Source: a virus | Taxonomy: Duplodnaviria; Caudoviricetes | DNA: 64,000 nt | Strand: one strand, 5' to 3' | Virus record (IMG/VR): IMGVR_UViG_3300028558_000028 | Location: 572-64,571 of that record | Shown: one piece after another, positions 1,107-60,908 of the stretch | Numbering within the stretch: position 1 is the stretch's first letter | How the letters are laid out: each line of letters begins with the position of its first letter | Position numbers and translations under genes: made by a program | Notes under the pieces: model-generated | The model's database searches: none | What the model was told of the DNA's origin: nothing | What the model saw: only the letters and a program-made list of their open reading frames with translations

Positions 1107-2210
1107 ATGAACGGCGATGCGCAGTGGGCTTGGTGGCAGAACGCGGTCGCCGGCAATCGCGGTGAACTGACCCGCGGCAATCCGAAGTCGGGATTCTACC
1201 GGGATCGCAGGCATCGCGCCATCGCAATCTGGCGTGAGGCGGACGGCACTCTGCAGTGCACGGTCACGGTCATCGGCAAGCGCCCATTCCAGGTCGTCCA
1301 TGATGACGAAATCGATGCTCTGTTCGGAGAGTGCTGCCAGTTCCCCGTCCCTCATGCGATCTATGAGGATGTTGCCGCGCACGGCAAGCCGTGGCCGCCA
1401 GAATACTTGGTCGAATTGACGATCAAGGAGACGATGGCGGCCGGGCCGGGTCGGGCCGAAGCACTCCAGGCGAAGCGCGAGCGCATCGCAGCGGCTGCAA
1501 TCCGAGAGCCCGACGCTGCGGAGAACGAGCGAGCCGTCCTTGGCGGCAATAACCCGCCAGAGCCGATGGCGCCTGATCTCGACTTGGCCGATCGCGTGTC
1601 CAAGCTCGAGAAGCAGGTCACCGATTGGCTTGCCTCAATCGGCGGCGCGCCTCGGACCCAGACAGAGGGTGATATCGTAGCAAATTACAAGGCCAAGTTC
1701 CTGGAATTCGAGAACGAGGCCAAGGAGAAGCACAAGGCGGAGAAAGAGCCGCACCTCGAAGCCGGACGCGCCGTTGACCGGAAGTGGTTTCCGATCCGCG
1801 ACGATGCAGAGGCGCTGAAGAAGCAGTTTGATGGCATCGTGCAGACCTGGGGTCGTGCCGAACAGGCGCGCCTCGACGATCTGGCACGCATCGAGACCGA
1901 GCGTCGGCGTCAGGCCGCGGCCGCGGAGGCAGCGCACAACCCCACGGCGCCCGCGCCGGTTGTCGCGCCCGTCACAGCCCCCAAGGTTACGCTTGGCACT
2001 ACGGGCCGCGCGCAGGCCGTCCGGACGACGGCGCCGATCTACGTCATCACCGATCTGGGGAAGGTTGCGGCACACCTCGCCGGCCTCGGACCGGGCGGCA
2101 AGAACGCGGTGTTCTGGGATGCCTGCCAGCGGCGCGTCAATGAACTCTGCAAGGCTGGCGCGACCGTCCCAGGCGTGAACGAGCCTCGCGCCGAGTCCTC
2201 AGCCGCCTAG
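1107..2210 (+). CDS. hypothetical protein with coiled-coil C-terminal half, upstream of RecT
   Basis: 367-aa ORF, SD AGGAG, 'GGNNPP' linker; position in the recombination module. Confidence 0.7.
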   Translation: MNGDAQWAWWQNAVAGNRGELTRGNPKSGFYRDRRHRAIAIWREADGTLQCTVTVIGKRPFQVVHDDEIDALFGECCQFPVPHAIYEDVAAHGKPWPPEYLVELTIKETMAAGPGRAEALQAKRERIAAAAIREPDAAENERAVLGGNNPPEPMAPDLDLADRVSKLEKQVTDWLASIGGAPRTQTEGDIVANYKAKFLEFENEAKEKHKAEKEPHLEAGRAVDRKWFPIRDDAEALKKQFDGIVQTWGRAEQARLDDLARIETERRRQAAAAEAAHNPTAPAPVVAPVTAPKVTLGTTGRAQAVRTTAPIYVITDLGKVAAHLAGLGPGGKNAVFWDACQRRVNELCKAGATVPGVNEPRAESSAA

Positions 2211-2220
2211 GAGAAGACCA

Positions 2221-3096
2221 ATGAACGAGGTTGTTCCGATCGCCGAGGCCCGACCAAACATTGCGGCCGGCGGCCGCGTGGCCGCAATCGTTCCGCAGAG
2301 CATGGACGAAGCCTACCGCTTGGCCAAGGCTGTCTGCCTCGCCGGCATGGCCCCAAAGGGCATGGACAGGCCCGAGAGCTGCATGATCGCGATCATGCAT
2401 GGCATGGAGATCGGCCTTACGCCACTCACGGCCCTACAGCGCATCGCTGTCGTGAACGGGCGCCCAACGATCTGGGGCGACGGGGCGATGAGCCTGGTCC
2501 GCGGATCGGGTGCTTGCGAATGGATCAAGGAGTCGATCGCTGGCGACGGCGAGAAGATGATCGCGACTTGCGAGGCGAAGCGGCGCGGCGAGCCAACCTC
2601 GATCTCACGCACGTTCTCGGTCGCCGATGCGAAGCAGGCCGGCCTATGGGGCAAATCCGGGCCGTGGACGCAATACGCAAAGCGGATGCTGCAAATGCGC
2701 GCACGAGCTTTTTGCTTGCGCGATGGGTTCGCGGATGTGCTCGGCGGCCTCTATCTGCGCGAGGAGATCGAGGAGGAGCATGGCACGCGTCCGACGCCGC
2801 CCACGCCGCCCACGGTAGAGCGTAGCCAGACGGTCGCGGCATTGGCTGCTCCTGTCCCTCCCAAGCCGCCACTGCCGCCTATCCCGCCAAGGCCTGCAGC
2901 CCCGGTAGAAGAGCCCTTCGACCCAGAGGCGCTCCGCATGCGCTTCGAGACTGCGGCGAAGGCGGCCACCGACATCGACGCGCTGAATAATGCCTGGGAC
3001 CAGATCGTGCGGTCGCACGAAGCGGATATCTTCCCGCCCGACTTGGAAGACCTGGTTGGGCTGTTCCGGCGCCGCGAAAACGAGCTGGAGCCGTAG
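2221..3096 (+). CDS. recT: RecT-family single-strand annealing protein
   Basis: Motif 'IMHGMEIGLTPLTALQRIAVVNGRPTIWGD...GLWGKSGPWTQYAKRMLQMRARAFCLRDGFADVLGG'; SD TAGGAG. Confidence 0.8.
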   Translation: MNEVVPIAEARPNIAAGGRVAAIVPQSMDEAYRLAKAVCLAGMAPKGMDRPESCMIAIMHGMEIGLTPLTALQRIAVVNGRPTIWGDGAMSLVRGSGACEWIKESIAGDGEKMIATCEAKRRGEPTSISRTFSVADAKQAGLWGKSGPWTQYAKRMLQMRARAFCLRDGFADVLGGLYLREEIEEEHGTRPTPPTPPTVERSQTVAALAAPVPPKPPLPPIPPRPAAPVEEPFDPEALRMRFETAAKAATDIDALNNAWDQIVRSHEADIFPPDLEDLVGLFRRRENELEP

Positions 3097-6656: not shown

Positions 6657-7166
6657 ATGACCGTACGCCCCCTCCCCGACCGAGCCAGCATCGGGCCAGA
6701 CACGCCGCTCAGGCTCGAGGATGCGATCGCGATCGCGTTCCCCACGGGCGGGCTGACCAAGAATGAAGCTAGGGTCGCGGTCGACGAAGGTCGGCTTGTC
6801 GCTTATCGACTTGGGGGCAAGCTGCTAACAACTCTCGCCAATGTCGAGGTGATGGAGCGGCGACAGCGGCCGAGGCCGGAAGGCCCAGGAGCATCCAGGT
6901 CCCCGATCGGCTTTAGAGGATACATATACGTCGTCGGCTTCGCGGACTATGTGAAAATTGGATATACGAAACGTGGTCCCGCCGGACGAATAGGCGCCCT
7001 GCAGGGGGCTTGTCCGGTTACCCTTATCCGCTACGGAATCGTACGCGGAACGCTTGATGATGAGCACCATATTCATCGTAGATTTCATCAGGACCGCCTC
7101 CGGGGCGAATGGTTCCGAAAATCGGCTAGGTTAGATATCTGGATCGAGGCGGGGTGCCCGTTGTGA
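6657..7166 (+). CDS. excisionase-like HTH fused to a GIY-YIG/T5orf172 domain
   Basis: N-half 'TPLRLEDAIAIAFPTGG...GRL...TTLANV'; C-half 'GYIYVVG...VKIGYT...RIGALQ...E...H..F...RLRGEWF'. Confidence 0.65.
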   Translation: MTVRPLPDRASIGPDTPLRLEDAIAIAFPTGGLTKNEARVAVDEGRLVAYRLGGKLLTTLANVEVMERRQRPRPEGPGASRSPIGFRGYIYVVGFADYVKIGYTKRGPAGRIGALQGACPVTLIRYGIVRGTLDDEHHIHRRFHQDRLRGEWFRKSARLDIWIEAGCPL

Positions 7167-7537
7167 CCCGCGTCCTCACCATGGACGAGGCTGCTGCCGA
7201 GCTCCGCGTCTCGCGCCGGTGGCTGCAGGATTTCCTCAAGAGCCTGCCCGCAGACCGCGCTTGGCACTTGCAAGCCGGTCGGAAAAAGCTGTTCGATGCA
7301 AGCGATCTCGACCGCCTGAAGGATCAAATGCGATGCCGCTCCGTGTCGTCCCCCCACGCGTCGGGAAAAGCCCGAACTACACGATCCGCGGGACGCACCT
7401 GGGAGTCCGAGTTAATCGAAGCGCGAAGACTAGCGACGGAAGGAAGGCCGAAAAGGTCCGGGCCAAAATCCGCGACGAGATCGAACGTGGAGCCTTTTCC
7501 CGTCCGGGCGAGCCGACCTTCGCCGGGGCGGCCTTGA
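7163..7537 (+). CDS. xis: excisionase / MerR-like HTH
   Basis: 'VLTMDEAAAELRVSRRWL...GRKKLFDASDLDRL'; GTGA overlap with the upstream stop; directly before int. Confidence 0.75.
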   Translation: MTRVLTMDEAAAELRVSRRWLQDFLKSLPADRAWHLQAGRKKLFDASDLDRLKDQMRCRSVSSPHASGKARTTRSAGRTWESELIEARRLATEGRPKRSGPKSATRSNVEPFPVRASRPSPGRP

Positions 7538-8379
7538 AGTACATCAAGGCCGGCGGCGAGCGTCGATATCTCGACCCGATCCTCGCCCATTTCGGCGGGA
7601 CGCTGCTGAAGGCGGTGGACCAGCAAGCGACGGACGACGCGGCGATCGCGATATATCCCATCGCGAACGCCGCGACCCGCAATAGGCAGGTCTATACGCC
7701 GATCTCGGCCGTGCTGAAACATGCCGGCATCACGGCGCGCGTCGCGCGACCCGCCGGCTGGCGTGGATCGAAGCGAGTCGATTGGTTGTGGCCGGAGCAG
7801 GCCCTGCCGTTGCTGGAGACCGCGGAGGCTATGAACGCCGAATTCGGTATCCTGATGACCGTCATCCTCTATACGGGCTTGCGCCTCAACGAGGCGCTTG
7901 CGCTCGAGATCGACCGGATGAGGTTGGCCGACGGCTTCGTCTATGTGCCCGATACGAAGAATGACGATCCGCGCTCGGTCTATCTTCCGCCGTTCGCCGT
8001 GGCTGCCCTGACGCGCCATCCGCGCGGGCTAGACCGGCCGGGGGAACGTGTCTTCAAGTTCCACAAGAGCGGCAGGCTATACGAGCTTCTGGACAAGGCG
8101 GCGATGCGCGCTGGCGTTACCATCCCGGATGGCGTTGCCTTCCACATCCTGCGCCACACCTGGGCTACGTGGATGCGCCGCTACGGCGGGCTGGACACGG
8201 CCGGGCTGGTAGGGACCGGCGCGTGGCGGGACCGAACGTCAGCGTCTCGATATGAGCACGTTGTGGTGTCCGAGGAAGCCCGCAAGGCAGACCTTCTGCC
8301 GACCACGCTGCAGCGCACAAGTGGTGTAAAAAGCGTGGAAATTGGGAAAATCGCCAAATCGTCGAGGAAAATCAGATGA
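7333..8379 (+). CDS. int: tyrosine recombinase (phage integrase)
   Basis: Catalytic motifs 'YTGLRLNEAL' (R), 'TKND' (K), 'FHILRHTWATW' (HxxR), 'GAW', 'RYEH' (Y). Confidence 0.95.
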   Translation: MPLRVVPPRVGKSPNYTIRGTHLGVRVNRSAKTSDGRKAEKVRAKIRDEIERGAFSRPGEPTFAGAALKYIKAGGERRYLDPILAHFGGTLLKAVDQQATDDAAIAIYPIANAATRNRQVYTPISAVLKHAGITARVARPAGWRGSKRVDWLWPEQALPLLETAEAMNAEFGILMTVILYTGLRLNEALALEIDRMRLADGFVYVPDTKNDDPRSVYLPPFAVAALTRHPRGLDRPGERVFKFHKSGRLYELLDKAAMRAGVTIPDGVAFHILRHTWATWMRRYGGLDTAGLVGTGAWRDRTSASRYEHVVVSEEARKADLLPTTLQRTSGVKSVEIGKIAKSSRKIR

Positions 8380-8382
8380 TCC

Positions 8383-8435
8383 GCACACCCTTCACACGGG
8401 TGGGGTCACAGGTTCAATCCCTGTCGCGCCCACCA
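8383..8435 (+). other. attP: attP core = 3' half of tRNA-Val(CAC)
   Basis: CACCC-TTCACAC-GGGTG anticodon arm, GGGTC, ACAGG-TTCAATC-CCTGT T-arm, CGCGCCC-ACCA; no D-arm or 5' acceptor strand; directly after int. Confidence 0.9.
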
Positions 8436-24304: not shown

Positions 24305-25722
24305 GACAGCGTGACGGCGATGTTGCCGGCGGCGAGGGTCGGCACCTCATCGATGTCGACACCGACCTGAAACAGGTTGGCGAGCGCCGACACCATGGCC
24401 TCGCTCGACACGGTCTGCGTCTGGTTCACCACCCAGCTCGTGCCGCTGCCCGAGACGATCTTGGTGCCGGGAAGGACGTTGCCGGTCAGGTCGAGCACGG
24501 ACTGGCCGATCGCGATGGTTCCCGTCACCGAGCTGACGGTAAGCGCCGTGCCGGCAATGGCCCCGGTGAACGTCGCCGATGTGTTGGCGGCCGATCCGAT
24601 CTCGAGCGAGATGATCTGCGCCCATGCGCCGAGCGCCGCCACTGGAGCGTAGAACCGGCTGGCATAGAGCGTGCCGCCGATCCGGGCGCGCGGCCCGCCA
24701 TCCCCGCCGGCGAACGCGCTGAGGATAGCATTCTGGATCTGCGTCGTGGCGTCGGCCGGGACCGCCGTGCTGTTGACGAGGTTGACCGCGAACAGGGTCG
24801 GCAGGCCGGTCGGGATTTCGAACTTGACCGTGTAGGACGGATAGGGCGGCGAATAGCCGGGGCTCGTGTCCTGTACCGTGACGGTGGTGTTGCCATTGTA
24901 GGCACATCCCGGCGCCTTGCGGGACCAGATGGCCTCGGCGATGTCCTGCGCCTCGCCACCGACCACCGCGACATAGACCGAGTTCGCGGCGAGCGACACG
25001 CCGCCGATCGTCTGCGGCGAGTCCTGATCGTTCTCCGTGACGTAGGCGTCGATCACGTTCTGGACCGACAGGACGGCGCCGAGGATCGCGCCGAGCGCCC
25101 CGTTCGAGTTCAGCGCGACCGAGGCGGCGCGGCGCGCCTCGAACGCGGCTCGGGTCTCCGTGTTGTTGCCGAGCACGCCCGACACGACGCTGACCGTGTC
25201 CCAACCCGGGATCGCCTGGTAGATCGTGATCTCATCGGCACCGGGCACCGCGGTCGGCCCGGGAATGACATTGGCGAACGGCAGCGTGATCGTGCCGCCG
25301 CCCGGGATCGTGCCGGCCTCGGTGCACGCGTAGAGGTTGCCCGACCCGTCCTGGATCAGCGCGTTGACCGGAATGACGACGCCGACCGCCCCGACGCAGG
25401 TCACCTGCAGGACGGTCGATTGCGACGGGTTCCGCTCGAGGAAATAGATGCGGGCGATCGCGTCCTGCATGCGGCCGGAGGCGTAGGCCGGATCGACCTG
25501 GTTGGTGATCGCGACGAACGTGTCGTTCACGTTGCCGATGATCGCGGCCATGCTCGATGCGAGCTGGCCCTGCGGCGTATCGAGCGCCGGGTTGAGCGTG
25601 AAGCCGGCGGCGGCGAACGCCGCCACGATGTCGGCGATGACGCCGGCGAGGATGGCCGCCTCCGACGGGGCAATGAAGCCCGTCGGGCCGAACGTGGGCC
25701 CGGGAACGTTCGTCGTTGGCAT
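24301..25722 (-). CDS. baseplate J/gp47-like protein
   Basis: 'TPQGQLA...ASGRMQDAIARIYFLER', 'ETRAAFEARR'. Confidence 0.9.
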   Translation of the reverse strand: MPTTNVPGPTFGPTGFIAPSEAAILAGVIADIVAAFAAAGFTLNPALDTPQGQLASSMAAIIGNVNDTFVAITNQVDPAYASGRMQDAIARIYFLERNPSQSTVLQVTCVGAVGVVIPVNALIQDGSGNLYACTEAGTIPGGGTITLPFANVIPGPTAVPGADEITIYQAIPGWDTVSVVSGVLGNNTETRAAFEARRAASVALNSNGALGAILGAVLSVQNVIDAYVTENDQDSPQTIGGVSLAANSVYVAVVGGEAQDIAEAIWSRKAPGCAYNGNTTVTVQDTSPGYSPPYPSYTVKFEIPTGLPTLFAVNLVNSTAVPADATTQIQNAILSAFAGGDGGPRARIGGTLYASRFYAPVAALGAWAQIISLEIGSAANTSATFTGAIAGTALTVSSVTGTIAIGQSVLDLTGNVLPGTKIVSGSGTSWVVNQTQTVSSEAMVSALANLFQVGVDIDEVPTLAAGNIAVTLS

Positions 25723-47715: not shown

Positions 47716-49079
47716 CGGAACCTCGATGAGGACGGCCGGCGGGATGCCGCCAGAGCGTCATCGCTGATGACGATAGGCGCCGGGCCAACAACCATCAGCT
47801 CGGACAATGCCCACACCAGCGCATCGACGCGATCCGGTGATCCGTCCTTGGCGCGATCGAAGTCCGTCGTGAACACGCACATCTGGTCTTCGAGATCCGG
47901 AAACGAGCCCACGTGGTGGACTTTTCGCTGCTCGTAAAGCGCCGACACCGGCTCGGCCCGGACGACCTTGCCCCGGCTGGCGTGCACCGCCTTGAACGAG
48001 GCGTTCGGGTCGACCATGCGGATGGTGCTCTCCACCATCTCGCCGCCGTTGTTGATTTCGGCCACGATCCGGTCGCCCCGTCGGGCCTTCAGCATTGCGA
48101 TCGCCTGCCGCGCCCACGCGACTGGGCTGTAGATTCCCGACCCGTCCTCGAGGACGTAGCCGTGACGGTCGACGCCGAGACCCGCGCATATGATCCCGGT
48201 CTCGTCCGAATCCTCGTGGCTCGTCACCGCCGGGTCGATCGCGACCACGATCCTGCGCAGTTGCGGCACCACGGCTGGCTTGCATCGAAGCTCATCCAGC
48301 AGCGCCCTGGTCCACAGAGCGCCAGGTGCGTCTTCCAGCAGCTCGGCATCAAGCTCTTGGCGGCCGAGCCGTGTGCCGGCATAGCGTTCGTAGAGCTGCG
48401 CGAGCGCGGCCGGCGCGAGGTTCTCGGCGTTCTCGGACGTCGCGCCGCGCGTGATCCTGACGGTTTCCTTCGCGACCAATTCCCGGATCAGCCGCGTCGG
48501 ACGTGGCGTCGTGGTGACGACGACACGAGGATCATCGCCGAGCCGTAGTCCGAACAGCAACTGATCCCAGGCCTCGGGATATCGCCATGCCGCGAGCTCG
48601 TCGCACCAAGCCCTGTGATTCTGTGGTCCGCGCAACCGCTCCGGCTCGTCCGCCGAGAAGAGCTTGTAGCGCGACCCGTTGACGAGGATCAGTTCGCCGA
48701 GCGAGCGGTTCCAGGCCTCGACGCACTCGGGCGGGACGACGCCAAGCAGCCCGGACTCGCCTTCAACGCATGTGTCGCGCGCGTCCCCGTATGTCGGCGC
48801 GACGATCGCAATCCTGACCCCGGGATGGCTGAGGCCGTACCACGCCACATCCTCCGCGCCGGTCCGGGTCTTTCCCCAGCCGCGGCCAGCCAGGATCAGC
48901 CAGGTCGACCAATCCCCGTCAGGGGTGATCTGCGACGCCCTCGCCTCGTTCAGCCAAGCCGCCCTGGATTTCAGGGCCGCTCGACTTCCGGGAGGCAATG
49001 CCGTCCAGAGCCTTGGTGAAGGCTTCAAAGGCGCCCTGGCCGTCGGCGCCGCCGCCATCATGGTCGTCTCTGGCATCAA
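47712..49079 (-). CDS. terL: terminase large subunit (start uncertain)
   Basis: Walker A 'AGRGWGKT', 'LRGPQ', Walker B 'WCDE', 'TTTP', nuclease 'AIDPA', 'DRVDALVW'. Confidence 0.95.
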   Translation of the reverse strand: MMPETTMMAAAPTARAPLKPSPRLWTALPPGSRAALKSRAAWLNEARASQITPDGDWSTWLILAGRGWGKTRTGAEDVAWYGLSHPGVRIAIVAPTYGDARDTCVEGESGLLGVVPPECVEAWNRSLGELILVNGSRYKLFSADEPERLRGPQNHRAWCDELAAWRYPEAWDQLLFGLRLGDDPRVVVTTTPRPTRLIRELVAKETVRITRGATSENAENLAPAALAQLYERYAGTRLGRQELDAELLEDAPGALWTRALLDELRCKPAVVPQLRRIVVAIDPAVTSHEDSDETGIICAGLGVDRHGYVLEDGSGIYSPVAWARQAIAMLKARRGDRIVAEINNGGEMVESTIRMVDPNASFKAVHASRGKVVRAEPVSALYEQRKVHHVGSFPDLEDQMCVFTTDFDRAKDGSPDRVDALVWALSELMVVGPAPIVISDDALAASRRPSSSRFR

Positions 49080-49581
49080 GATTGAACGCTTGCCGCTCCA
49101 GCGGGATCAGGTTCTTGAGCGTCTGGGACAGCTCCCGCGCGACCATGGCGCGCGATGGCAGGCTCACCGCCCTCCGCATCGCGTCACGGCGAGCCGCGTT
49201 GAACCCTTCCTCAGCGGCTACGCGTTCAACCTCGTCTTCGATCTCGCCCCGCTTGTCGGTGCCTTCCTCCAGCTCATCGAGGAGCTTCTCGACGATGCGG
49301 TTGGCACGCCCCAGCGACCCGCGATGCTGCCGGACAAGCTCGACCACACGGCTGGCTGCGGCATCGATTGCCGCCCGTGCGTTACCATCGGTAACGCTCT
49401 CGGTAACCAGTCGATTGGTAACCTCGGCACGGACGTCCTTGGCAAGGTCGCGGGCCCAGCCGTTCGCCTTCGCCTTCTTGCCGATAGCGACATGGCTGAC
49501 GCCGAACTGCCGAGCGATCTCGCGGACGGATAGCTGCCCGGCGCGGTACTCGCGCTCGATCGCCTCCCAATCGATTGACAT
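48919..49581 (-). CDS. terS: terminase small subunit
   Basis: 'IDWEAIEREYRAG..SVREIARQFGVSHVAIGKKAKANGW.RDL'. Confidence 0.85.
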   Translation of the reverse strand: MSIDWEAIEREYRAGQLSVREIARQFGVSHVAIGKKAKANGWARDLAKDVRAEVTNRLVTESVTDGNARAAIDAAASRVVELVRQHRGSLGRANRIVEKLLDELEEGTDKRGEIEDEVERVAAEEGFNAARRDAMRRAVSLPSRAMVARELSQTLKNLIPLERQAFNLDARDDHDGGGADGQGAFEAFTKALDGIASRKSSGPEIQGGLAERGEGVADHP

Positions 49582-49767
49582 TTGGTCCGGCCTACGCTCG
49601 CCCGATCACGACGACGGCGGCGAGCACGATGAGGAAGAGCGCGGTCTGCATGGCGGGGCTCCGGGCTTGGTGCCAGCATGCGCGCGCAGACGCTTTGCAC
49701 TGTCGGGAGGCCAAAGGATCTCCCCAATGCCTCGTGGGGACCAACCGACAGGCATGCTGGATAGGCC

Positions 49768-49852
49768 TTCGAGTGAGCTAGAGCCCCATTTGCTCGGTTG
49801 AGACCAGCCGGGTGACGGCTGCACCAGCGTGATTCCACGCCGCTCACTCGAA
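49768..49852. ncRNA. multibranch (cloverleaf-like) RNA element
   Basis: 11-bp closing stem TTCGAGTGAGC/GCTCACTCGAA enclosing hairpins GAGC/GCTC, GGT/ACC, AGCCG/CGGCT, GCGTG/CACGC. Confidence 0.5.
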
Positions 49853-49854
49853 AC

Positions 49855-49971
49855 TGGTTGCGCGGGCGGGATTTGAACCCGCGACATGAAACTTACGGGG
49901 TAGAACTCCGATCGTCATCGGCTCTTGCCCCTGCGCGCGATCCACTGCTACCATGAGCAGATTCCTGCGCG
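49855..49971 (-). ncRNA. tRNA-like RNA with a long hairpin inserted in the anticodon arm
   Basis: CGCGCAG..., D-like CTGC-TCATGGTA-GCAG, perfect T-arm GCGGG-TTCAAAT-CCCGC, CCGCGCA-ACCA. Confidence 0.6.
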
Positions 49972-49992
49972 AATTTGGGTGCCGCTCGAAAC

Positions 49993-50066
49993 TGGTTGCG
50001 GGTGCCGAGTTGAACGGCCTGCGTCGGCTTATGAGACCGAGGAGCGCACCGGCGCTCTTACCCGCC
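49993..50066 (-). tRNA. degenerate tRNA-Met(CAT), initiator-like
   Basis: GGCGGGT/ACCCGCA acceptor with 1:72 mismatch, GAGC/GCTC D-stem, TCGGT-CTCATAA-GCCGA, 4-bp T-stem with TTCAACT, ACCA. Confidence 0.7.
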
Positions 50067-50125
50067 ACAGCGGTGGACTGTCAGCTCTGGCGAGCTACCG
50101 GATTGCTCCACCGCGACATGAACTT

Positions 50126-50230
50126 TGGTGCTCGGGAGGGCGGCAGAAACCCCGCTGCCGTCCTCTCCACCGGAAAGGACGGCCCCGGCTGATCTGCTCG
50201 CCGGGCCTTACCTGCCGGCCTGGCTGAGCG
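50126..50230 (-). ncRNA. highly degenerate tRNA-like RNA with long variable arm
   Basis: CGCTCAG.../CCGAGCA-CCA; GGCC-GGCAGGTAA-GGCC; CGGC-GAGCAGATCA-GCCG; 12-bp hairpin GCCGTCCTTTCC/GGAGAGGACGGC. Confidence 0.4.
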
Positions 50231-50288
50231 TCGGACGCGATCCGACACATAGAATTTCCTGAGCCTGTACAATGGAAACGACCTGCCG

Positions 50289-50840
50289 TCAATGCCGCTG
50301 GAATCGGTAAACCACAGCAAGAGCCCGAAGCCCAGGCAAGATCCACAGCTTTTCGGCCCAGCTCGGCTGATGTTGATAGACGCAGACGCGCTCCAGGACG
50401 TCCAGGACGCCCAATCCTCCGGGAAGACCTGAGATTGCCTCGCGACCCTCCAAATGCCGCCGGCGGGCCTTTTCCGCTCGCTTGCGGGCCTCTTTCTGCC
50501 CATCATGGGTCTCGGCATCTGGAGATCGGCCCGAGCCAACCTCGAAGTTTGGCGACCGTGCACTGCCTGGCGGAGCATTGATCGATTGATCGTAGCTGAG
50601 CTTGCGGCTGGCATATTCGCGGCCGGCGGCGTATTCGGCGCTCGTGATCTCTCCCTGGAGGTACATCGCCCCGAGCGGATCGCCCCATTGCGGATCGGCA
50701 GCCCCGGCCTTCGCCTGATCTGCGAGGCGACGAAAGGTGGCCGGTGCCGTCTCGTTATGGTTCCTGGCGCGCTGGCCCGAGGGGTAGCGCTCGCCCGGCA
50801 CTGGCTTGCGTCCTGCTTTGCTCTTCGCCATGGTCAGCAT
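50289..50840 (-). CDS. probable late transcription regulator / antiterminator-position protein
   Basis: Last early gene before the late operon; 'GRKP..GERYPSG...LGAMYLQGEITSAEYAAG'. Confidence 0.6.
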   Translation of the reverse strand: MLTMAKSKAGRKPVPGERYPSGQRARNHNETAPATFRRLADQAKAGAADPQWGDPLGAMYLQGEITSAEYAAGREYASRKLSYDQSINAPPGSARSPNFEVGSGRSPDAETHDGQKEARKRAEKARRRHLEGREAISGLPGGLGVLDVLERVCVYQHQPSWAEKLWILPGLRALAVVYRFQRH

Positions 50841-52220: not shown

Positions 52221-52827
52221 CGAGCATTCTCTGCGCGGCTTCGCGTTGGATTTCGGCAAGCGTGTCAAGGCGGGTCGGACGCGGGCCGGCGCGAACTGGC
52301 GGGACGAGCCCTTCGTCATCCCAACATCCGCGTGTGAGCCAGACGACCGGCGATTTGATGTAGCGCGGCTCAACCCCGCGTACAGATTCCGCATACCGGC
52401 CGGCGCCATCGATGAGAACCTGCGGATCTAGGCCGGTCTTGACGAGCGCATGGAACTTAGCCTCGGCTGCCTTTTTTTCGATCCGCTTCGGGTAGGCAGC
52501 AATGAATTCGAGGAACCTCGCGCTCGCGTGACGAACACCGAGCGAAGCGAGGATGGAAGGGGTTTTTTCTTTAGGGGGTGCGGGGGACGTTTCTTTAGGG
52601 GAAGGATCGGTAACGCCTGTCACAGAATGTAACTGTGTGTCATGGTATGTAACGTTACCATCCGTTACGTCACGTGACAGTTGCCTGAGAGCGCGGCTTT
52701 TCCGCGTGCGCTCTGCCTGACGCTCAAGTCGCTGCCGTTCCTTCTCTTCGCGATCGCTTTCAACGGCCCTTACAGCGGCGGCGATCATCTCAGGAGACGC
52801 GCCGGCCGACACGAGGGCATCGATCAT
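52069..52827 (-). CDS. phage replication initiator
   Basis: 'MIDALVSAGASPEMI...ER...R', C-terminal 'FLEFIAAYPKR..KKAA...YIKSPVVWL....W.DE'. Confidence 0.75.
   Translation of the reverse strand: MIDALVSAGASPEMIAAAVRAVESDREEKERQRLERQAERTRKSRALRQLSRDVTDGNVTYHDTQLHSVTGVTDPSPKETSPAPPKEKTPSILASLGVRHASARFLEFIAAYPKRIEKKAAEAKFHALVKTGLDPQVLIDGAGRYAESVRGVEPRYIKSPVVWLTRGCWDDEGLVPPVRAGPRPTRLDTLAEIQREAAQRMLDDQSGNPQYPTGETEATEPRNGRRVGELSQPPEVGARGPSLDLFPRRADR
52560..52682. repeat. candidate replication origin iterons inside the initiator gene
   Basis: Cluster of GTAAC/GTTAC/GTCAC plus duplicated TTTCTTTAGGGG. Confidence 0.5.
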
Positions 52828-53237
52828 CAGCACGAGCTGCGACAAGCGCCCTCCTCGCCTGGCGGCAACCGAACATATTCCCAGAGCGAGTCCCTGAAGT
52901 CGTGATCTCCTGCGCCGAGGCCGAAGAACACCCACTCCGTCTCGATGGCAGTTTCGACACCCTCTACCGCCTCATCCGGAGCTATATCGAACCATTCTCG
53001 CTGCATCCTTTGATCATTGTATAGGAAGTGGAACTCACGCTCGATTTTTGACGCTCTGGCGCGCGTCGGGAATCTAAAGGTGCGAAGGAGGGCAATGGGG
53101 TTCGGACATGCCGTGGCGAGGCCCTCCAGACGGCGCGACGGGTCCGTGCTGATGCCAACCTTCACCGGCGATACGGGAACGCTGCCACGCATGGTGGCTA
53201 TGACATAGACGAAGCAGTTCCGATCGAGAGACCGCAT
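52827..53237 (-). CDS. GIY-YIG/T5orf172 domain protein
   Basis: 'FVYVI...VKVGISTDPSRRL..L...IEREFH...REWF'. Confidence 0.8.
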   Translation of the reverse strand: MRSLDRNCFVYVIATMRGSVPVSPVKVGISTDPSRRLEGLATACPNPIALLRTFRFPTRARASKIEREFHFLYNDQRMQREWFDIAPDEAVEGVETAIETEWVFFGLGAGDHDFRDSLWEYVRLPPGEEGACRSSC

Positions 53238-53884: not shown

Positions 53885-54210
53885 GGATGCCACCCTGGAA
53901 CTGTTCGATATTCGACGGGACGACCTTCCGATTCCGCCCGAACGATGCCCTTTTGCATGCCGCGCGAAATGCCAAAATCGGTGTAAACTGCCGTTAGATG
54001 AGCGCGGGACCCCCACGCCAAGCCCGCCTCAATTCCCAAGCGTCTCTGACGCGGATCGGCATCGTCGAGAACGCCTTCCTGAGTATAGAGCAGGTGAGAC
54101 GCGAATGGATATTCACCCCGCTTGAAGCAATCCGCAATCGCAGCGCGCGCATAGGCAAGGTTGCGCTCGACTTCGCCAGCGAAGGGGCTTTCAACAATGA
54201 CGAGCTTCAT
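53881..54210 (-). CDS. conserved phage protein (VESPFAG...NLAYAR...PFASHLLY)
   Basis: Recognisable Rossmann-like motif; ATGA coupling. Confidence 0.75.
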   Translation of the reverse strand: MKLVIVESPFAGEVERNLAYARAAIADCFKRGEYPFASHLLYTQEGVLDDADPRQRRLGIEAGLAWGSRAHLTAVYTDFGISRGMQKGIVRAESEGRPVEYRTVPGWHP

Positions 54211-55421
54211 GCTCCGCCTCCGCCGAAGAGAGGACCGGCATCTACCGGCAAGCCCCGTGCCTTGACGCTTTCCCGCGCGCGCTCGTCCCGACCGGCAAGA
54301 ACAAGCGCCATGCGCCGTTCAATGTCGGCGATGTATTCGGCCTCGCGCTCAATCAGGATGGCGCTGAACCCCTCGCGGTAAGCGGCCTCGCCAGTTGTCC
54401 CGGTTCCAGCGAAGCAATCAAGGACGGTCCCGCCGGGCGGCGTGATCAGGCGAGCTAGTTCCTGGATGAGATCCAGCGGCTTGACTGTCGGATGCTTGGA
54501 CCCGAGTCGATCGTCGGCACCCGCCTTCGAGGACCAGAAGAACCGCGCCGCGGAACCGCAATCAGCGCGAGCGACGGATGCTGGTCGGCCGGCGAATTGC
54601 CCGTACACTGCATTTGTTAAATTGCTTGGTTCATCCCCTCGCACGTTGCCTTGCTGGCCGTCGCTGTCAGGAAACGCTGCGACAACCTCTGGCGATCCGT
54701 CGTGCATGACGTTGGCAGGCCAGCGGCCGCGTCCGGGAACCCGAGGGGCAAAAGCGCCGTTCAACCCGTCTACATAGATATAAGCACCGGCACCGGCACC
54801 GGCACCGGCACCGGCACATCCGCCATTGTCCCCTACGAGGCACCCGTCAATGTTCACGGCCCCAGTCCCCCAGTACTCCACGTTCATAGTGCCGTTCTTT
54901 TCCGAGAACGGCTTCTGTCCCATGTAGATCGGTTCAAGCGCCGGCTTGAGAGCCTGGCCGCCATAGCGCCAACCTTCCCGCCCAGGTACGTGAACGCGAT
55001 GCGCCTTCGGAAAACCTTGGCCAAACAGCCAGCCGATGAACGGATGCGTGATGAAACCGGCATCCTCGATCGCGACCGACATGCGACCGAAGGTCCGGGA
55101 AGATGAGAATGCGAGGATGTACGCGCCCGGCTTCAGAACGCGGAGCACTTTCGCCCACGTTTCGACGCGGAAGGCGATATCCCCGCCGTCCCACTGCTTG
55201 CCCATGAAACCGGCGCTCGCGCGGGAATAGAGGCCGTCCGAACCATGCTGCGCGGCCGCCGCGCCGTTCGCGCCGAAGCGCTTGACGATCGAGGCCAAAT
55301 GGTAGGGCGGATCGCAGACGACAGAGTCCACGCTGTTCTCGGGCAGCGTGTCGAGCACGGCGAGACAATCGCCATGGTGCAGCTCGACGCGGCCGTTCAG
55401 GAACAGTCGAGCCTCACCCAT
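54207..55421 (-). CDS. beta-class N6A/N4C DNA methyltransferase
   Basis: 'DPPY' precedes 'HPTVKP' and 'DCFAGTGTT'. Confidence 0.9.
   Translation of the reverse strand: MGEARLFLNGRVELHHGDCLAVLDTLPENSVDSVVCDPPYHLASIVKRFGANGAAAAQHGSDGLYSRASAGFMGKQWDGGDIAFRVETWAKVLRVLKPGAYILAFSSSRTFGRMSVAIEDAGFITHPFIGWLFGQGFPKAHRVHVPGREGWRYGGQALKPALEPIYMGQKPFSEKNGTMNVEYWGTGAVNIDGCLVGDNGGCAGAGAGAGAGAYIYVDGLNGAFAPRVPGRGRWPANVMHDGSPEVVAAFPDSDGQQGNVRGDEPSNLTNAVYGQFAGRPASVARADCGSAARFFWSSKAGADDRLGSKHPTVKPLDLIQELARLITPPGGTVLDCFAGTGTTGEAAYREGFSAILIEREAEYIADIERRMALVLAGRDERARESVKARGLPVDAGPLFGGGGA
54784..54817. repeat. (GCACCG)5 tandem repeat encoding a Gly-Ala run
   Basis: Read directly from the sequence. Confidence 0.9.
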
Positions 55422-55611
55422 TGAGACGCTCCTCGACGCTCTCCAGCTCCAGCGCGGGCTCCTCTTCCCGCACCGACCTTTCATGCGCGTTGATGATCAG
55501 CCGCTGGTCCGTGCCGTGATCGCAGGGAACGCGAACGGTCATCCATCCGTCGGGGCCGACGGAGAGAATCTTGGCGCGGATCAGGATGTGATCGCCGGGG
55601 CGGAGGGTCAC
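55414..55611 (-). CDS. small hypothetical protein
   Basis: GTGA coupling. Confidence 0.55.
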   Translation of the reverse strand: MTLRPGDHILIRAKILSVGPDGWMTVRVPCDHGTDQRLIINAHERSVREEEPALELESVEERLNG

Positions 55612-59058: not shown

Positions 59059-60108
59059 TCACGGCGCCCCTCCCATGACGGCGCTGGCAACGACCGCGGC
59101 GCTCGCGCGCTGGCTCGGCGCGCTGATCGTGATCGGCGGGCAGTTCGTGTTCGTGTGGCCGGCCGCGTAGGCGGCGAGGATGGCTCGGCCTATCGCTTCG
59201 ACAACCTGGGGTACGACGGCGTTTCCGAGGGCCTTCAGACGATGAACGCGATCTTTGACGCCATGAGCTGTGCGAGGGATGTCGGGCTCAGTTGCCCAGG
59301 TCAGTCCACCGCCGTCCAATTCGGCGGGAAGCCTTGCAACCATTCGACCCAGGTCGGATTCAGAGGGGCGCCAACCGTGTGGCAGAGTTGGACCTGGCCG
59401 CTTCCCTTTCTCGTCCCACCCTTCGCATCTACCGTATTCGGCGTGGGCCAAAGCGCCACCCTGGTCGGAAGGTCGTCGTCGCATGCTGCCCTGCACGCCC
59501 TGGGCGTCGGCCAAAGAGCGTCCTTCGCCATCGAAACGAGCGACGGCCGCTTCACACCGGTTCGTCCGGCAGCGCCGCCTTGGTTCGACCCGTACTGCGT
59601 CGCGGACGGCGCGGGCAACGAGCCAAGCTCGCTGTCGCCTGTGCGGCGCTCCGACATGGACAGCACCCACCACGGCCGGCTCGCAGGCGTAGCCGAGCGT
59701 TTCCAGGTCAGAGAGGACCCGGTCAGCGCCGCGAGTTCGCAGAGCAGGGACGTTCTCAATGACGACGAAAAGGGGTCGCAGCTCGCCGATGAGACGGGCG
59801 TATTCCCGCCAGAGCCCGGAGCGCTCGCCATCGATGCCGGCGCGCTTGCCGGCGTTGCTGATGTCCTGGCACGGGAACCCGCCGCAGATGACGTCAACGG
59901 CAATTCCATCTGCCGCGAGTCGATCGGCCGTGAGCGTGCGGACATCGTCATAACAGGGGACATCCGGCCAGTGCTTCGCGAGCACACGACGGCAGAACGG
60001 ATCGATTTCGCAGAACGCTACGGTCTCGAAGCCGCCGGTGCGCTCGAGGCCGAGCGAGAAGCCGCCGATTCCGCTGAAGATGTCCAGAACACGGAGGGGA
60101 GCGGTCAT
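59059..60108 (-). CDS. C5-cytosine DNA methyltransferase, alpha polypeptide (motifs I-VIII and X)
   Basis: 'FSGIGG', 'GGFPCQD', 'IENV', 'HRRQRAW', 'RLKALGNAVVP'. Confidence 0.9.
   Translation of the reverse strand: MTAPLRVLDIFSGIGGFSLGLERTGGFETVAFCEIDPFCRRVLAKHWPDVPCYDDVRTLTADRLAADGIAVDVICGGFPCQDISNAGKRAGIDGERSGLWREYARLIGELRPLFVVIENVPALRTRGADRVLSDLETLGYACEPAVVGAVHVGAPHRRQRAWLVARAVRDAVRVEPRRRCRTNRCEAAVARFDGEGRSLADAQGVQGSMRRRPSDQGGALAHAEYGRCEGWDEKGKRPGPTLPHGWRPSESDLGRMVARLPAELDGGGLTWATEPDIPRTAHGVKDRVHRLKALGNAVVPQVVEAIGRAILAAYAAGHTNTNCPPITISAPSQRASAAVVASAVMGGAP
59301..59987 (-). CDS. overlapping alternative-frame beta polypeptide carrying WPTP repeats and motif IX (start uncertain)
   Basis: 'LWPTP' x2 and 'LNPTWVEWLQGFPPNWT'. 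Confidence 0.65.
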   Translation of the reverse strand: MCSRSTGRMSPVMTMSARSRPIDSRQMELPLTSSAAGSRARTSATPASAPASMASAPGSGGNTPVSSASCDPFSSSLRTSLLCELAALTGSSLTWKRSATPASRPWWVLSMSERRTGDSELGSLPAPSATQYGSNQGGAAGRTGVKRPSLVSMAKDALWPTPRACRAACDDDLPTRVALWPTPNTVDAKGGTRKGSGQVQLCHTVGAPLNPTWVEWLQGFPPNWTAVD

Positions 60109-60908
60109 GCCGCCTCTCCCGCCGAGAAGAGCGGTAGATCTTCCGCGGCCTGGTTGCGCCGGTCACCCCGCATCGAGCGGGCTTTGTGAAAATCAGCGTG
60201 GACGATCTCGGTCGTCGGGGCGGCGCCGCGCCACTCGTTCCGATATGCCGAGGTATCGATCGGAATGCCGACGGAGAGTTGGATCGCAGTTTGCCGTTCG
60301 AAACCCGCGTACGCAGTCGACGACGAGATTCGGAAGTCCTGCCGTCCGCTATAGCTGAACGGAGCCGACATTTGCGGAACGATGAACACGCCAGCGTCGC
60401 CGAGATCACTGGCAATGTCGATCAAGTGATACTCGAATTCGCGCCCGCGGTAGCGGGGCGAGGCAGATTTGGATCGAGCCGTGCCGCCGAACGGCGGGTT
60501 TGCAATCACGCAGTCGAAATGGCCAAGGTTCGGAAGAGCGAAGACGTCAGCCTCGATCCATGTTGCCTCGGGGACAATCTTGCGGCCGACGGAAACATAA
60601 TCAGGATTATTATCGACGCAGACGATCTCGCGCTTAGCGTCATCCCAGCATGTCGGATGGAGGAAGAAGGAGAGCGTCCCGATCCCGGCGCAGAGATCGA
60701 GAATGCGCCGACCATGCACTTCGAGGCGGAAATCCCGGGCGAGGCCCAGCGGCGTAAAGAACGCGCCGGCCGCACTGTTGATGTGGGTCGCCGACTCCTG
60801 CCAGTTCTCCAGCACGAACCATCGGTCGTCTTCGGAAAGCACGTCCTGCCGCAACAGTTCGCAGGCCTGCTTGTGGGCGGCGATCTGCGGTTTCGTGAGC
60901 TTGCTCAT
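60105..60908 (-). CDS. gamma-class N6-adenine DNA methyltransferase-like
   Basis: 'GAFFTP', 'LDLCAGIG', 'NPPF'. Confidence 0.85.
   Translation of the reverse strand: MSKLTKPQIAAHKQACELLRQDVLSEDDRWFVLENWQESATHINSAAGAFFTPLGLARDFRLEVHGRRILDLCAGIGTLSFFLHPTCWDDAKREIVCVDNNPDYVSVGRKIVPEATWIEADVFALPNLGHFDCVIANPPFGGTARSKSASPRYRGREFEYHLIDIASDLGDAGVFIVPQMSAPFSYSGRQDFRISSSTAYAGFERQTAIQLSVGIPIDTSAYRNEWRGAAPTTEIVHADFHKARSMRGDRRNQAAEDLPLFSAGEAA

Follow-up and report, generated by a model that had tools for sequence, protein, structure and literature searches.

A non-canonical initiator-type tRNA-Met gene and probable fragments of a second tRNA-fMet in the spacer upstream of terS in a temperate phage

The spacer upstream of terS

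The window analyzed here is a stretch of 64,000 nucleotides (nt) that makes up nearly the entire 64.6-kb IMG/VR virus record IMGVR_UViG_3300028558_000028, and its gene content is that of a temperate tailed phage. On its minus strand, a spacer of about 700 nt (positions 49582 to 50288) lies between a 183-residue open reading frame (ORF) for a phage hypothetical protein (50289 to 50840), the last early ORF, and terS (48919 to 49581; phrog_1206, E value of 1.9e-50), the first packaging gene downstream of the spacer. A first-pass annotation of this DNA had described six RNA elements in the spacer, called (a) to (f) from the upstream ORF toward terS, and had read them as an array of tRNA decoys or mimics. 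Our analysis points instead to one tRNA gene, (c), which stands beside probable remnants of a second tRNA, (b) and (d), and hairpins, (a), (e), and (f), that appear specific to this lineage.

The G+C content by codon position is flat from about 49660 to 50260 and periodic in the genes on both sides, and the stretch is therefore non-coding. None of the ORFs in the spacer matched Pfam or PHROGs. The earlier statement that it holds no credible ORF thus stands with one reservation, a possible 19-codon ORF for a hydrophobic peptide read from the sequence between (f) and terS (49594 to 49650, minus strand). Eighteen of its 19 third positions are G or C and GGAG lies 7 nt upstream, and it may be a gene for a small membrane peptide. 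The 183-residue ORF had been proposed to encode a late regulator, but it has no Pfam or PHROG match and hits only unnamed viral clusters in the Atlas, with DUF6456 as a weak lead. Neither a sigma-70-like promoter nor a minus-strand intrinsic terminator was found within 49300 to 50700, which makes transcriptional read-through into terS likely.

Element (c) has the build of a non-canonical initiator-type tRNA-Met

Element (c) occupies 74 nt (49993 to 50066, minus strand). Its minimum-energy structure is a cloverleaf with a CAU anticodon (folding z score of -2.5 relative to shuffled sequences), in agreement with its first description as a tRNA-Met(CAT) with a 4-bp T stem. The 7-bp acceptor stem begins with a G1.A72 mismatch followed by G2:C71 and C3:G70, and ends with A73 and an encoded CCA. 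A8 and A9 precede a 6-bp D stem that includes A11:U24 and is capped by a CGGU tetraloop. In the anticodon stem, UCGGU/GCCGA, the pairs G29:C41 and G30:C40 are joined by U31.G39, and the loop is CUCAUAA. A variable loop of 5 nt leads to the 4-bp T stem with its UUCAACU loop, and the acceptor and T stems stack to 11 bp (a 7/4 branch).

The determinants of initiator identity and formylation are a mismatch or weak pair at 1:72, G2:C71, C3:G70, and A73. Initiator tRNA-fMet also has A11:U24 in the D stem and three consecutive G:C pairs at 29-31:39-41, and canonical tRNAs have a 7/5 acceptor/T branch and U8. Element (c) possesses the acceptor determinants and A11:U24 and lacks the run of three G:C pairs in the anticodon stem. 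As for general tRNA features, it has a 7-nt anticodon loop with U33, a T loop of the UUCRA type, and a discriminator base followed by CCA; it departs from the canonical 7/5 branch and from U8, and it falls below the curated detector thresholds.

In default mode, ARAGORN called no tRNA gene in the whole window, and Rfam at the gathering cut-off reported no family. The best clan match to (c) was the Rfam tRNA-Sec model (36.5 bits, E value of 2.6e-5, under its gathering score of 47), and RF00005 found nothing above 29 bits in the record. A host among the Hyphomicrobiales is probable, as the nearest TerS proteins belong to Methylobacterium, Bradyrhizobium, Hyphomicrobium, and Methylocella; the closest ones, mostly from Logan assemblies, are 60 to 67% identical. 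In pairwise alignment with tRNA-fMet of Hyphomicrobiales genomes, (c) is identical at 56 of 81 positions.

Homologues of (c) form a covarying family

At least seven other phage contigs carry a homologue of (c) at 80 to 90% identity, in unrelated flanks. With loci numbered L, these are L245 (89.7%), L247 (88%; also fetched as L255 and L266), L264 (86%), L249 (83.6%; also L257 and L268), L262 and L270 (82% each), and L263 (80% over 50 nt). Distant relatives with a normal 5-bp T stem are found in L252, L253, and L256. In the metagenome of a second study (run X2), a 177-nt contig matches 49991 to 50061 at 70 of 71 positions and turns into unrelated sequence 2 nt beyond the CCA of (c). Apart from (c), the only match of X2 to the spacer was one 37-nt piece with 7 differences. 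Another run with this sequence, X1, probably represents the sample that the record came from.

Family members were gathered by two kinds of pattern, one fixed on the D arm together with the anticodon loop and the other on the T loop together with the 3' end. They share A8 and A9, and their 6-bp D stem is capped by a CGGU or UGGU tetraloop. The anticodon loop is CUCAUAA, with U31.G39 next to it, the variable loop has 5 nt, and the CCA that follows A73 is encoded. The UUCAACU T loop, the CUCAUAA loop, and the A-CCA end are invariant or nearly so. The 4-bp T stem is present in (c) and seven other members, and A8 in nine of nine aligned sequences.

The four-stem cloverleaf is held by compensatory change in (c) and its homologues. 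In the alignment of nine sequences, 92.0% of the cells were paired versus 75.9% in shuffles, and 13 of 23 pairs had changed on both sides; none of 500 shuffles did as well, and only 30 to 50% of cells paired in controls with slid partners. An alignment of the eight 74-nt members gave 93.2% paired cells and 11 compensatory pairs out of 22 (0 of 500 shuffles as good). The two extra D-stem pairs (14:21 and 15:20) covary. Of the four T-stem pairs, three vary, as do the two extra pairs, and pairing is kept throughout; two of these variable pairs have changed on both sides. Among positions relevant to initiator identity, 2:71 is G:C and 3:70 is C:G in eight of nine sequences each, and A:U at 11:24 is found in all nine (and in seven of eight in the alignment of 74-nt members). 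The 1:72 position is U:A in four sequences, mismatched in four, and G:C in one. In the anticodon stem, U.G at 31:39 is kept in eight of nine sequences and 29:41 varies.

ARAGORN called L262, L263, and L264 as tRNA-Met and missed (c), L245, L255, L257, and L270. A family model built here, R1, found a single copy per locus of the temperate type. The gene has no fixed place. In the window, L245, and L247 it is close to terS, in L249 and L262 it follows an antiterminator gene, and in L270 it belongs to an early region. Element (c) is a real tRNA gene, kept as a unit of its own.

The 18-nt anticodon arm of (c), CUCGGUCUCAUAAGCCGA (also written CTCGGTCTCATAAGCCGA), occurs exactly in 111 IMG/VR contigs (L134 to L244). 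At nearly all of the 80 loci fetched, it belongs to a tRNA-Met called by ARAGORN, mostly inside phage tRNA arrays. That one arm with U31.G39 should stay constant while the acceptor, D, and T arms are diverse is an unusual form of conservation. The combined D-arm and anticodon pattern of (c) was absent from the genomes searched, out of 401 in the order of G004, and four of the six IMG/VR matches to the D-arm 18-mer were chance occurrences in coding DNA.

Two other loci bear on this type of tRNA. L269 (IMGVR_UViG_3300031416_000304) contains a truncated (c)-type tRNA (1201 to 1240, minus strand; R1 score of 34 bits) in which the first 14 nt are joined directly to the T arm and 3' end, another internal deletion in the family. 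On the plus strand of L260, a (c)-like tRNA-Met that ARAGORN does not call (1494 to 1567) is followed 3 nt later by a canonical tRNA-Met (1571 to 1644), an arrangement suggesting that neither type makes the other redundant.

Elements (b) and (d) are probably fragments of a second tRNA-fMet

Element (b) (50067 to 50125, minus strand) is a chimeric tRNA fragment in which a 15-nt junction string, AAGTTCATGTCGCGG, is joined at CGCGG to positions 3 to 34 of a host-type tRNA-fMet. It is identical to Hyphomicrobiales tRNA-fMet at 28 of 33 positions, its D arm is intact, and it is folded back by GCGGTGGA/TCCACCGC (hairpin z score of -2.9). Its likeness to a tRNA-fMet 5' part and its fold-back, both noted in the first pass, are confirmed.

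Element (d) (49855 to 49939, minus strand) is a pseudo-tRNA. In its acceptor, C1.A72 is mismatched and five pairs are Watson-Crick, one of them (C5:G68) flipped; its 5-bp T arm is perfect, and it ends in ACCA. Directly after CAT, 9 nt are deleted. Two bases at the end of the loop, two of the variable loop, and, between these, the 3' strand of the anticodon stem are lost, so that the anticodon arm is left one-sided; the D region has grown into a hairpin. Aligned from its D stem through the CCA, (d) is identical to host tRNA-fMet at 38 of 57 positions with this single 9-nt gap, and it shares 57 of 80 positions with the phage tRNA-Met of L111. It scores 14.8 bits with RF00005 and 16.6 bits with R1 (E value of 0.0027 in 4 kb), and ARAGORN calls it at -ps80 only. 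Rfam at an E value of up to 10 places a tmRNA match on its T arm (17.3 bits over 18 nt). The T arm, ACCA end, and pairable acceptor recognized in the first pass are thus upheld, but not the larger extent given there, as the 117-nt version has a z score of -0.99 with 31 of 200 shuffles folding as well (z score of -1.78 for the 85-nt version).

In five of five Hyphomicrobiales genomes, the blast matches of (b) (50115 to 50087, 29 nt, 86% identity) and of the 3' end of (d) (49885 to 49855, 84 to 91%) lie in one and the same tRNA-fMet gene. The presence of initiator-derived sequence in the spacer, as first proposed, is borne out. The T-arm string of (d) was found in a single IMG/VR contig, which carries an ordinary tRNA-Met.

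Two repeats link the tRNA-like elements, as had been reported. A 21-nt direct repeat with 90% identity and a spacing of 138 nt is found at the end of (d) (49847 to 49867) and the end of (c) (49985 to 50005); it consists of the 3' acceptor strand, ACCA, and the trailer GTTTCGAG, such that (c) and (d) share their final 12 tRNA nt and this trailer. The shared 3' end probably represents a duplication or conversion tract. The second is an exact 12-nt repeat, TTCATGTCGCGG on the minus strand, present at the junction of (d) (49879 to 49890) and the head of (b) (50111 to 50122) (100% identity, z score of 5.0, 0 of 200 shuffles). The string AAGTT(T)CATGTCGCGG, common to (b) and (d), corresponds to the deletion junction of (d) leading into the T stem. 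Beyond these two repeats, no internal homology among nine segments of the spacer reached a z score above 3.

A series of accidents of the pseudogene type would account for these features. A 9-nt deletion after CAT in a second tRNA-fMet copy would have given (d). Element (b) would stem from a copy of the (d) junction that was joined to a 5' half by recombination at CGCGG(G), which both share; an exchange between two copies, from CGCGGG in the T stem of one to CGCGGG in the acceptor of the other, is expected to leave such a fusion. The common 3' end and trailer of (c) and (d) would go back to a tract of gene conversion or duplication. We thus regard (b) and (d) as the probable wreckage of a second, host-type tRNA-fMet, because half of an anticodon arm is deleted and the same junction is copied onto a 5' half. 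The first-pass annotation had itself named a decaying tRNA duplication as the alternative to its proposal; this describes (b) and (d), with their deletion and copied junction, but not (c), which covaries. Similarly, its argument that stems were kept while anticodon arms were remodeled applies to (c) and its family only, and (b) and (d) bear marks of decay.

Other ways of assembling tRNA-like molecules from these pieces were considered and rejected. A permuted, two-piece alphaproteobacterial tmRNA was suggested by ARAGORN at -ps80 only and with an atypical tag, and RF01849 had no match at an E value of up to 10 in the record. A tRNA with a 290-nt intron, reaching from the start of (a) to the end of (d) (ARAGORN -i -ps90), would have poor acceptor pairing and matches no intron family. 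A tRNA split by a group I intron was dismissed as no intron family was detected by Rfam at the same threshold over 49400 to 50600. Paired with each other, as read from the sequence, the 5' half in (b) and the 3' half in (d) would have no more than 3 Watson-Crick pairs in the acceptor.

Elements (a), (e), and (f) are hairpins of uneven strength

Element (a) (50126 to 50230, minus strand) forms two GC-rich hairpins, one with a 12-bp stem, and has an ACCA end (z score of -3.1, 0 of 200 shuffles). Its minimum-energy fold has no acceptor stem, and it was not recognized as a tRNA by ARAGORN at -ps80, by Rfam at an E value of up to 10, or by R1. The tRNA-like character ascribed to it finds no support in these searches. 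The 1:72 mismatch with A72 that had been reported for three units is present as G.A in (c) and C.A in (d) but cannot be established in (a).

Element (e) (49768 to 49852, minus strand), which begins within the trailer of (d), forms a four-way junction: a 10-bp stem closes it, and its three hairpins have stems of 6, 6, and 4 bp with loops of 4, 5, and 7 nt, respectively. It contains an 11-nt perfect inverted repeat. Its z score of -4.04, with none of 200 shuffles folding as well, upholds the multibranch structure first drawn for it; neither tRNA models nor Rfam (E value of up to 10) support it. Element (f) (49700 to 49751, minus strand), presented as a nested stem, is a weak hairpin (z score of -1.55, 13 of 200 shuffles as good) enclosed, as read from the sequence, by the 9-nt inverted repeat CCAGCATGC/GCATGCTGG. 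R1 found nothing in (a), (b), (e), or (f), and Rfam at an E value of up to 10 returned only pieces of the tRNA clan over 49400 to 50600.

We scanned the minus strand from 1 to 55600 in 1,111 windows of 100 nt. Four of the 16 spacer windows were in the top 5%, corresponding to (a), (c), and (e), with rank 8 for the one over (a) (50151 to 50250) and rank 38 for that of (e); the other 12 were ordinary. The 546 nt that hold the elements folded better than shuffles on both strands, with a z score of -4.56 for the plus strand and -2.75 for the minus strand. To call the region almost fully base-pairable was therefore an overstatement. Elements (a), (e), and (f) may best be described as lineage-specific GC-rich hairpins with some role or none. 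The most structured of the 1,111 windows lies elsewhere, at 25501 to 25600 (minus-strand RNA, z score of -8.1), inside the baseplate gene region.

Among the loci compared, only (c) is conserved

The terS protein alone yielded no close phage relative in IMG/VR, and the 183-residue ORF used as a query for phage relatives gave one weak match. An alignment of terS provided 107 related loci (80 viral and 27 genome loci), with terS at most 60% identical. A blastn comparison of the 701-nt spacer with these loci produced one 34-nt T-arm match and nothing else, and in all loci with (c)-type tRNAs, (c) alone was matched. Neither the phages with a (c)-type tRNA nor the 107 terS loci contain anything corresponding to the other five elements. 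Genes upstream of the tRNA are unrelated between phages. In particular, the proteins encoded upstream of it in L247 and L249 are unrelated to the 183-residue ORF, so no module of regulator and tRNA is conserved.

ARAGORN found tRNAs in five of the 107 terS loci. R1, run on 100 of them (all but L103 to L109), matched two: the L067 match is a canonical fMet tRNA, and that in L101 is a degenerate tRNA-like sequence with CAT. The L101 sequence, in a prophage of Pseudochelatococcus contaminans (2355 to 2429, plus strand; 26.8 bits), stands some 70 nt ahead of a related terS, with a terminator-like hairpin after it, and ARAGORN does not call it.

Setting in the phage genome

Lysis, baseplate, tail, and head genes occupy the minus strand, and terL, portal, and Mu-F-like genes are present beside terS. 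The early genes, for replication and three DNA methyltransferases (54207 to 55484, 59059 to 60108, and 60105 to 60908), run from about 61180 down to 50289, with an S24 repressor on the opposite strand. Two proteins with T5orf172/MUG113 domains, of the GIY-YIG-like endonuclease type, are encoded at 6657 to 7166 (plus strand) and 52827 to 53237 (minus strand). The integrase, assigned from gene content, is at 7219 to 8379 (plus strand), and within its final codons begins a tRNA-Val(CAC)-like fragment (8344 to 8432, plus strand; RF00005 score of 19 bits) comprising the 3' two-thirds of a tRNA, i.e., the anticodon arm, T arm, acceptor strand, and CCA. This fragment is likely to be the attP, with a tRNA-Val gene as the phage's integration site. 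The spacer was rejected as attP, as it is 41 kb away from the integrase and includes a 5' half.

Interpretation and alternative readings

We favor a reading in which this temperate-phage spacer holds one working gene, (c), the debris of a second tRNA-fMet, and lineage-specific hairpins, with a probability of about 0.62. The (c) gene family and its structure are shown by the analysis, and so are the homology of the fragments and their rearrangements.

Several points weigh against this reading. Element (c) is missed by default ARAGORN and by Rfam gathering scores, it has just two of the three initiator anticodon-stem G:C pairs, and its translational activity is not assured because U8 is absent and the acceptor/T stack measures only 11 bp. 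The family is not uniform: 1:72 is a Watson-Crick U:A pair in four of nine members, L259 breaks two T-stem pairs, and L263 breaks D-stem pairs. Invariance in the D arm and anticodon loop, or in the T loop and 3' end, is in part built in by the search patterns, which fixed these regions. No RNA run is listed among the public sequencing runs that contain the (c) sequence. With five Watson-Crick pairs left in the acceptor, a perfect T arm, and ACCA, (d) may be either of recent origin or under selection. Some selection is also possible for (a) and (e), which fold far better than shuffles, and the (a), (e), and (f) hairpins may belong to either strand, as the plus strand folds better. Lastly, the nearest terS loci compared are 55 to 60% identical, which makes the comparison a fair test of deep conservation only.

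The expression, processing, charging, formylation, and nuclease escape of (c) are inferred. It would be transcribed as part of a leftward, minus-strand transcript running into terS and released by RNase P and 3' trimming, with its CCA already encoded. Methionyl-tRNA synthetase would charge it by way of the CAU anticodon. As the mismatched 1:72, G2:C71, C3:G70, A73, and A11:U24 are kept, it would probably be formylated and act as an extra initiator in late protein synthesis. The steady difference from the host initiator is U31.G39 in place of G31:C39, at the junction of the anticodon loop and stem. This is where toxins of the VapC type are reported to cut initiator tRNA (PMC8522696), and escape from such a nuclease would therefore be a plausible benefit of (c). 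A proposal that phage tRNAs evade anticodon nucleases through changes in the anticodon loop has been put forward (PMC10264068).

A stronger version of this idea, which we consider unlikely, would make (c) the representative of a distinct class of phage initiators, defined by the 11-bp 7/4 build, a tRNA-Sec-like D arm, and U31.G39, that provides a VapC-resistant supply for late synthesis, with (d) and perhaps (a) as processed bait or punctuation.

Also unlikely is that (a) to (f) function together as an RNase P-processed array of mimics or decoys, in which (a), (c), and (d), through their acceptor, T-arm, and CCA modules, would bind enzymes or toxins that target tRNAs or draw them away. This was the first-pass proposal, and the retention in (d) of acceptor, T arm, and ACCA while the anticodon arm was lost, the significant structure of (a) and (e) (ranks 8 and 38 of 1,111), and the identical trailer after (c) and (d) all speak for it. 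However, conservation and covariation mark (c) as a tRNA gene by itself rather than a mimic or decoy, and the other five elements recur neither beside (c)-type tRNAs nor upstream of the 107 related terS genes. Moreover, the deletion and the chimeric junction look accidental, (a) lacks a tRNA-like fold, and the 117-nt (d) folds no better than shuffles.

We regard as improbable a single long, structured leader RNA of the late operon, serving in processing, antitermination, or translational control with tRNA-like parts as modules. Such an RNA would fit the folding of the 546 nt on both strands (z scores of -2.75 and -4.56) and the likely read-through into terS in a region devoid of promoter or minus-strand terminator, but Rfam at an E value of up to 10 finds tRNA-clan pieces only, no more than four of 16 windows are unusually structured, and (c) is an independent unit with its own boundaries in other genomes, where nothing else is conserved. 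Equally improbable is a signal at the DNA level, with the inverted repeats acting as binding sites (for packaging at pac by TerS, or for a late activator) or the spacer being the remnant of a former att site in a tRNA-fMet gene. The spacer does adjoin terS, its minus strand folds no better than its plus strand, a behavior that DNA palindromes would show, and the phage uses a tRNA fragment as attP elsewhere. Against this, the attP is at 8344 to 8432 by the integrase and a 5' tRNA half like (b) is not part of an attP, (c) covaries as RNA, and no binding-site motif is repeated beyond the two tRNA-derived repeats. The least probable reading, that everything including (c) is functionless, decaying tRNA DNA, draws on the subthreshold scores of (c), its A8 and 4-bp T stem, and the truncated copy in L269, but is hard to reconcile with compensatory changes that keep all four stems across at least eight phages, with a near-identical copy of (c) in an unrelated sample with different flanks, and with the ARAGORN calls of three members with a 4-bp T stem as tRNA-Met.

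Temperate phages of rhizobia and related bacteria commonly carry a single tRNA-Met or tRNA-fMet gene. Some of these genes form a covarying family with a long D stem and tetraloop, a 4-bp T stem, and U.G at the loop-stem junction. As standard callers partly miss the (c) family, tRNA counts in such phages are underestimates. Its difference from the host initiator at the reported VapC site offers a direct handle on the idea that phages replace nuclease-sensitive tRNAs. The broken copies, of minor interest, document duplication, deletion, and recombination of phage tRNA genes.

Comparison with known systems

One reference for (c) is bacterial tRNA-fMet. In common with that of five Hyphomicrobiales genomes, it has a 1:72 mismatch, G2:C71, C3:G70, A73, A11:U24, and CAU; its differences are U31.G39 where the initiator has its third G:C pair, A8 where the initiator has U8, a D stem that is longer, and a T stem of 4 bp.

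The long D stem with a tetraloop and the 4-bp T stem are reminiscent of tRNA-Sec and of the allo-tRNAs, and Rfam tRNA-Sec is the best match to (c). Allo-tRNAs and tRNA-Sec-like molecules have 8/4 or 9/3 branches, reach 12 or 13 bp through a longer acceptor, and carry long variable arms, and some are found in alphaproteobacterial phages (PMC5389517). They have Ser-type or other anticodons, whereas (c) has a 7-bp acceptor (11 bp in total), a 5-nt variable loop, and CAU. The base before position 1 is unable to pair in three of the four (c)-type members inspected by eye. We found no description of the 7/4 build in the open-access literature on non-canonical phage Met tRNAs, which is not proof of its absence.

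With the tRNA-Met genes of large-phage arrays that contain CUCGGUCUCAUAAGCCGA, (c) shares an identical anticodon stem-loop including U31.G39, an acceptor of the xGCGGG/CCCGCA type, and A73. This anticodon arm is also present in annotated tRNA-Met genes of Klebsiella and Salmonella phages. The array genes mostly have a 5-bp T stem, are called by ARAGORN, and lie in the arrays of lytic or jumbo phages, whereas (c) stands alone in a temperate phage.

Elements (b) and (d) resemble tRNA pseudogenes and att fragments in being partial, rearranged copies, and the same phage has a tRNA-Val 3' fragment as its attP. Unlike att-site fragments, they are far from the integrase and include a 5' half and an internal deletion.

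A parallel for the phage as a whole is offered by the phiLM21-like prophages of Sinorhizobium, of which 15 of 25 carry one tRNA gene, 10 being Met(CAU) and four fMet(CAU) (PMC12429752). They have the same kind of host group, and they too are temperate, tRNA-integrating phages in which a CAU tRNA is the only tRNA. Element (c) differs in that it is not called by default ARAGORN or at Rfam gathering scores and in its 6-bp D stem with tetraloop and 4-bp T stem. By these comparisons, we class (c) as a non-canonical variant within the single tRNA-Met/fMet genes of alphaproteobacterial temperate phages, and (b) and (d) as pseudogene fragments beside it.

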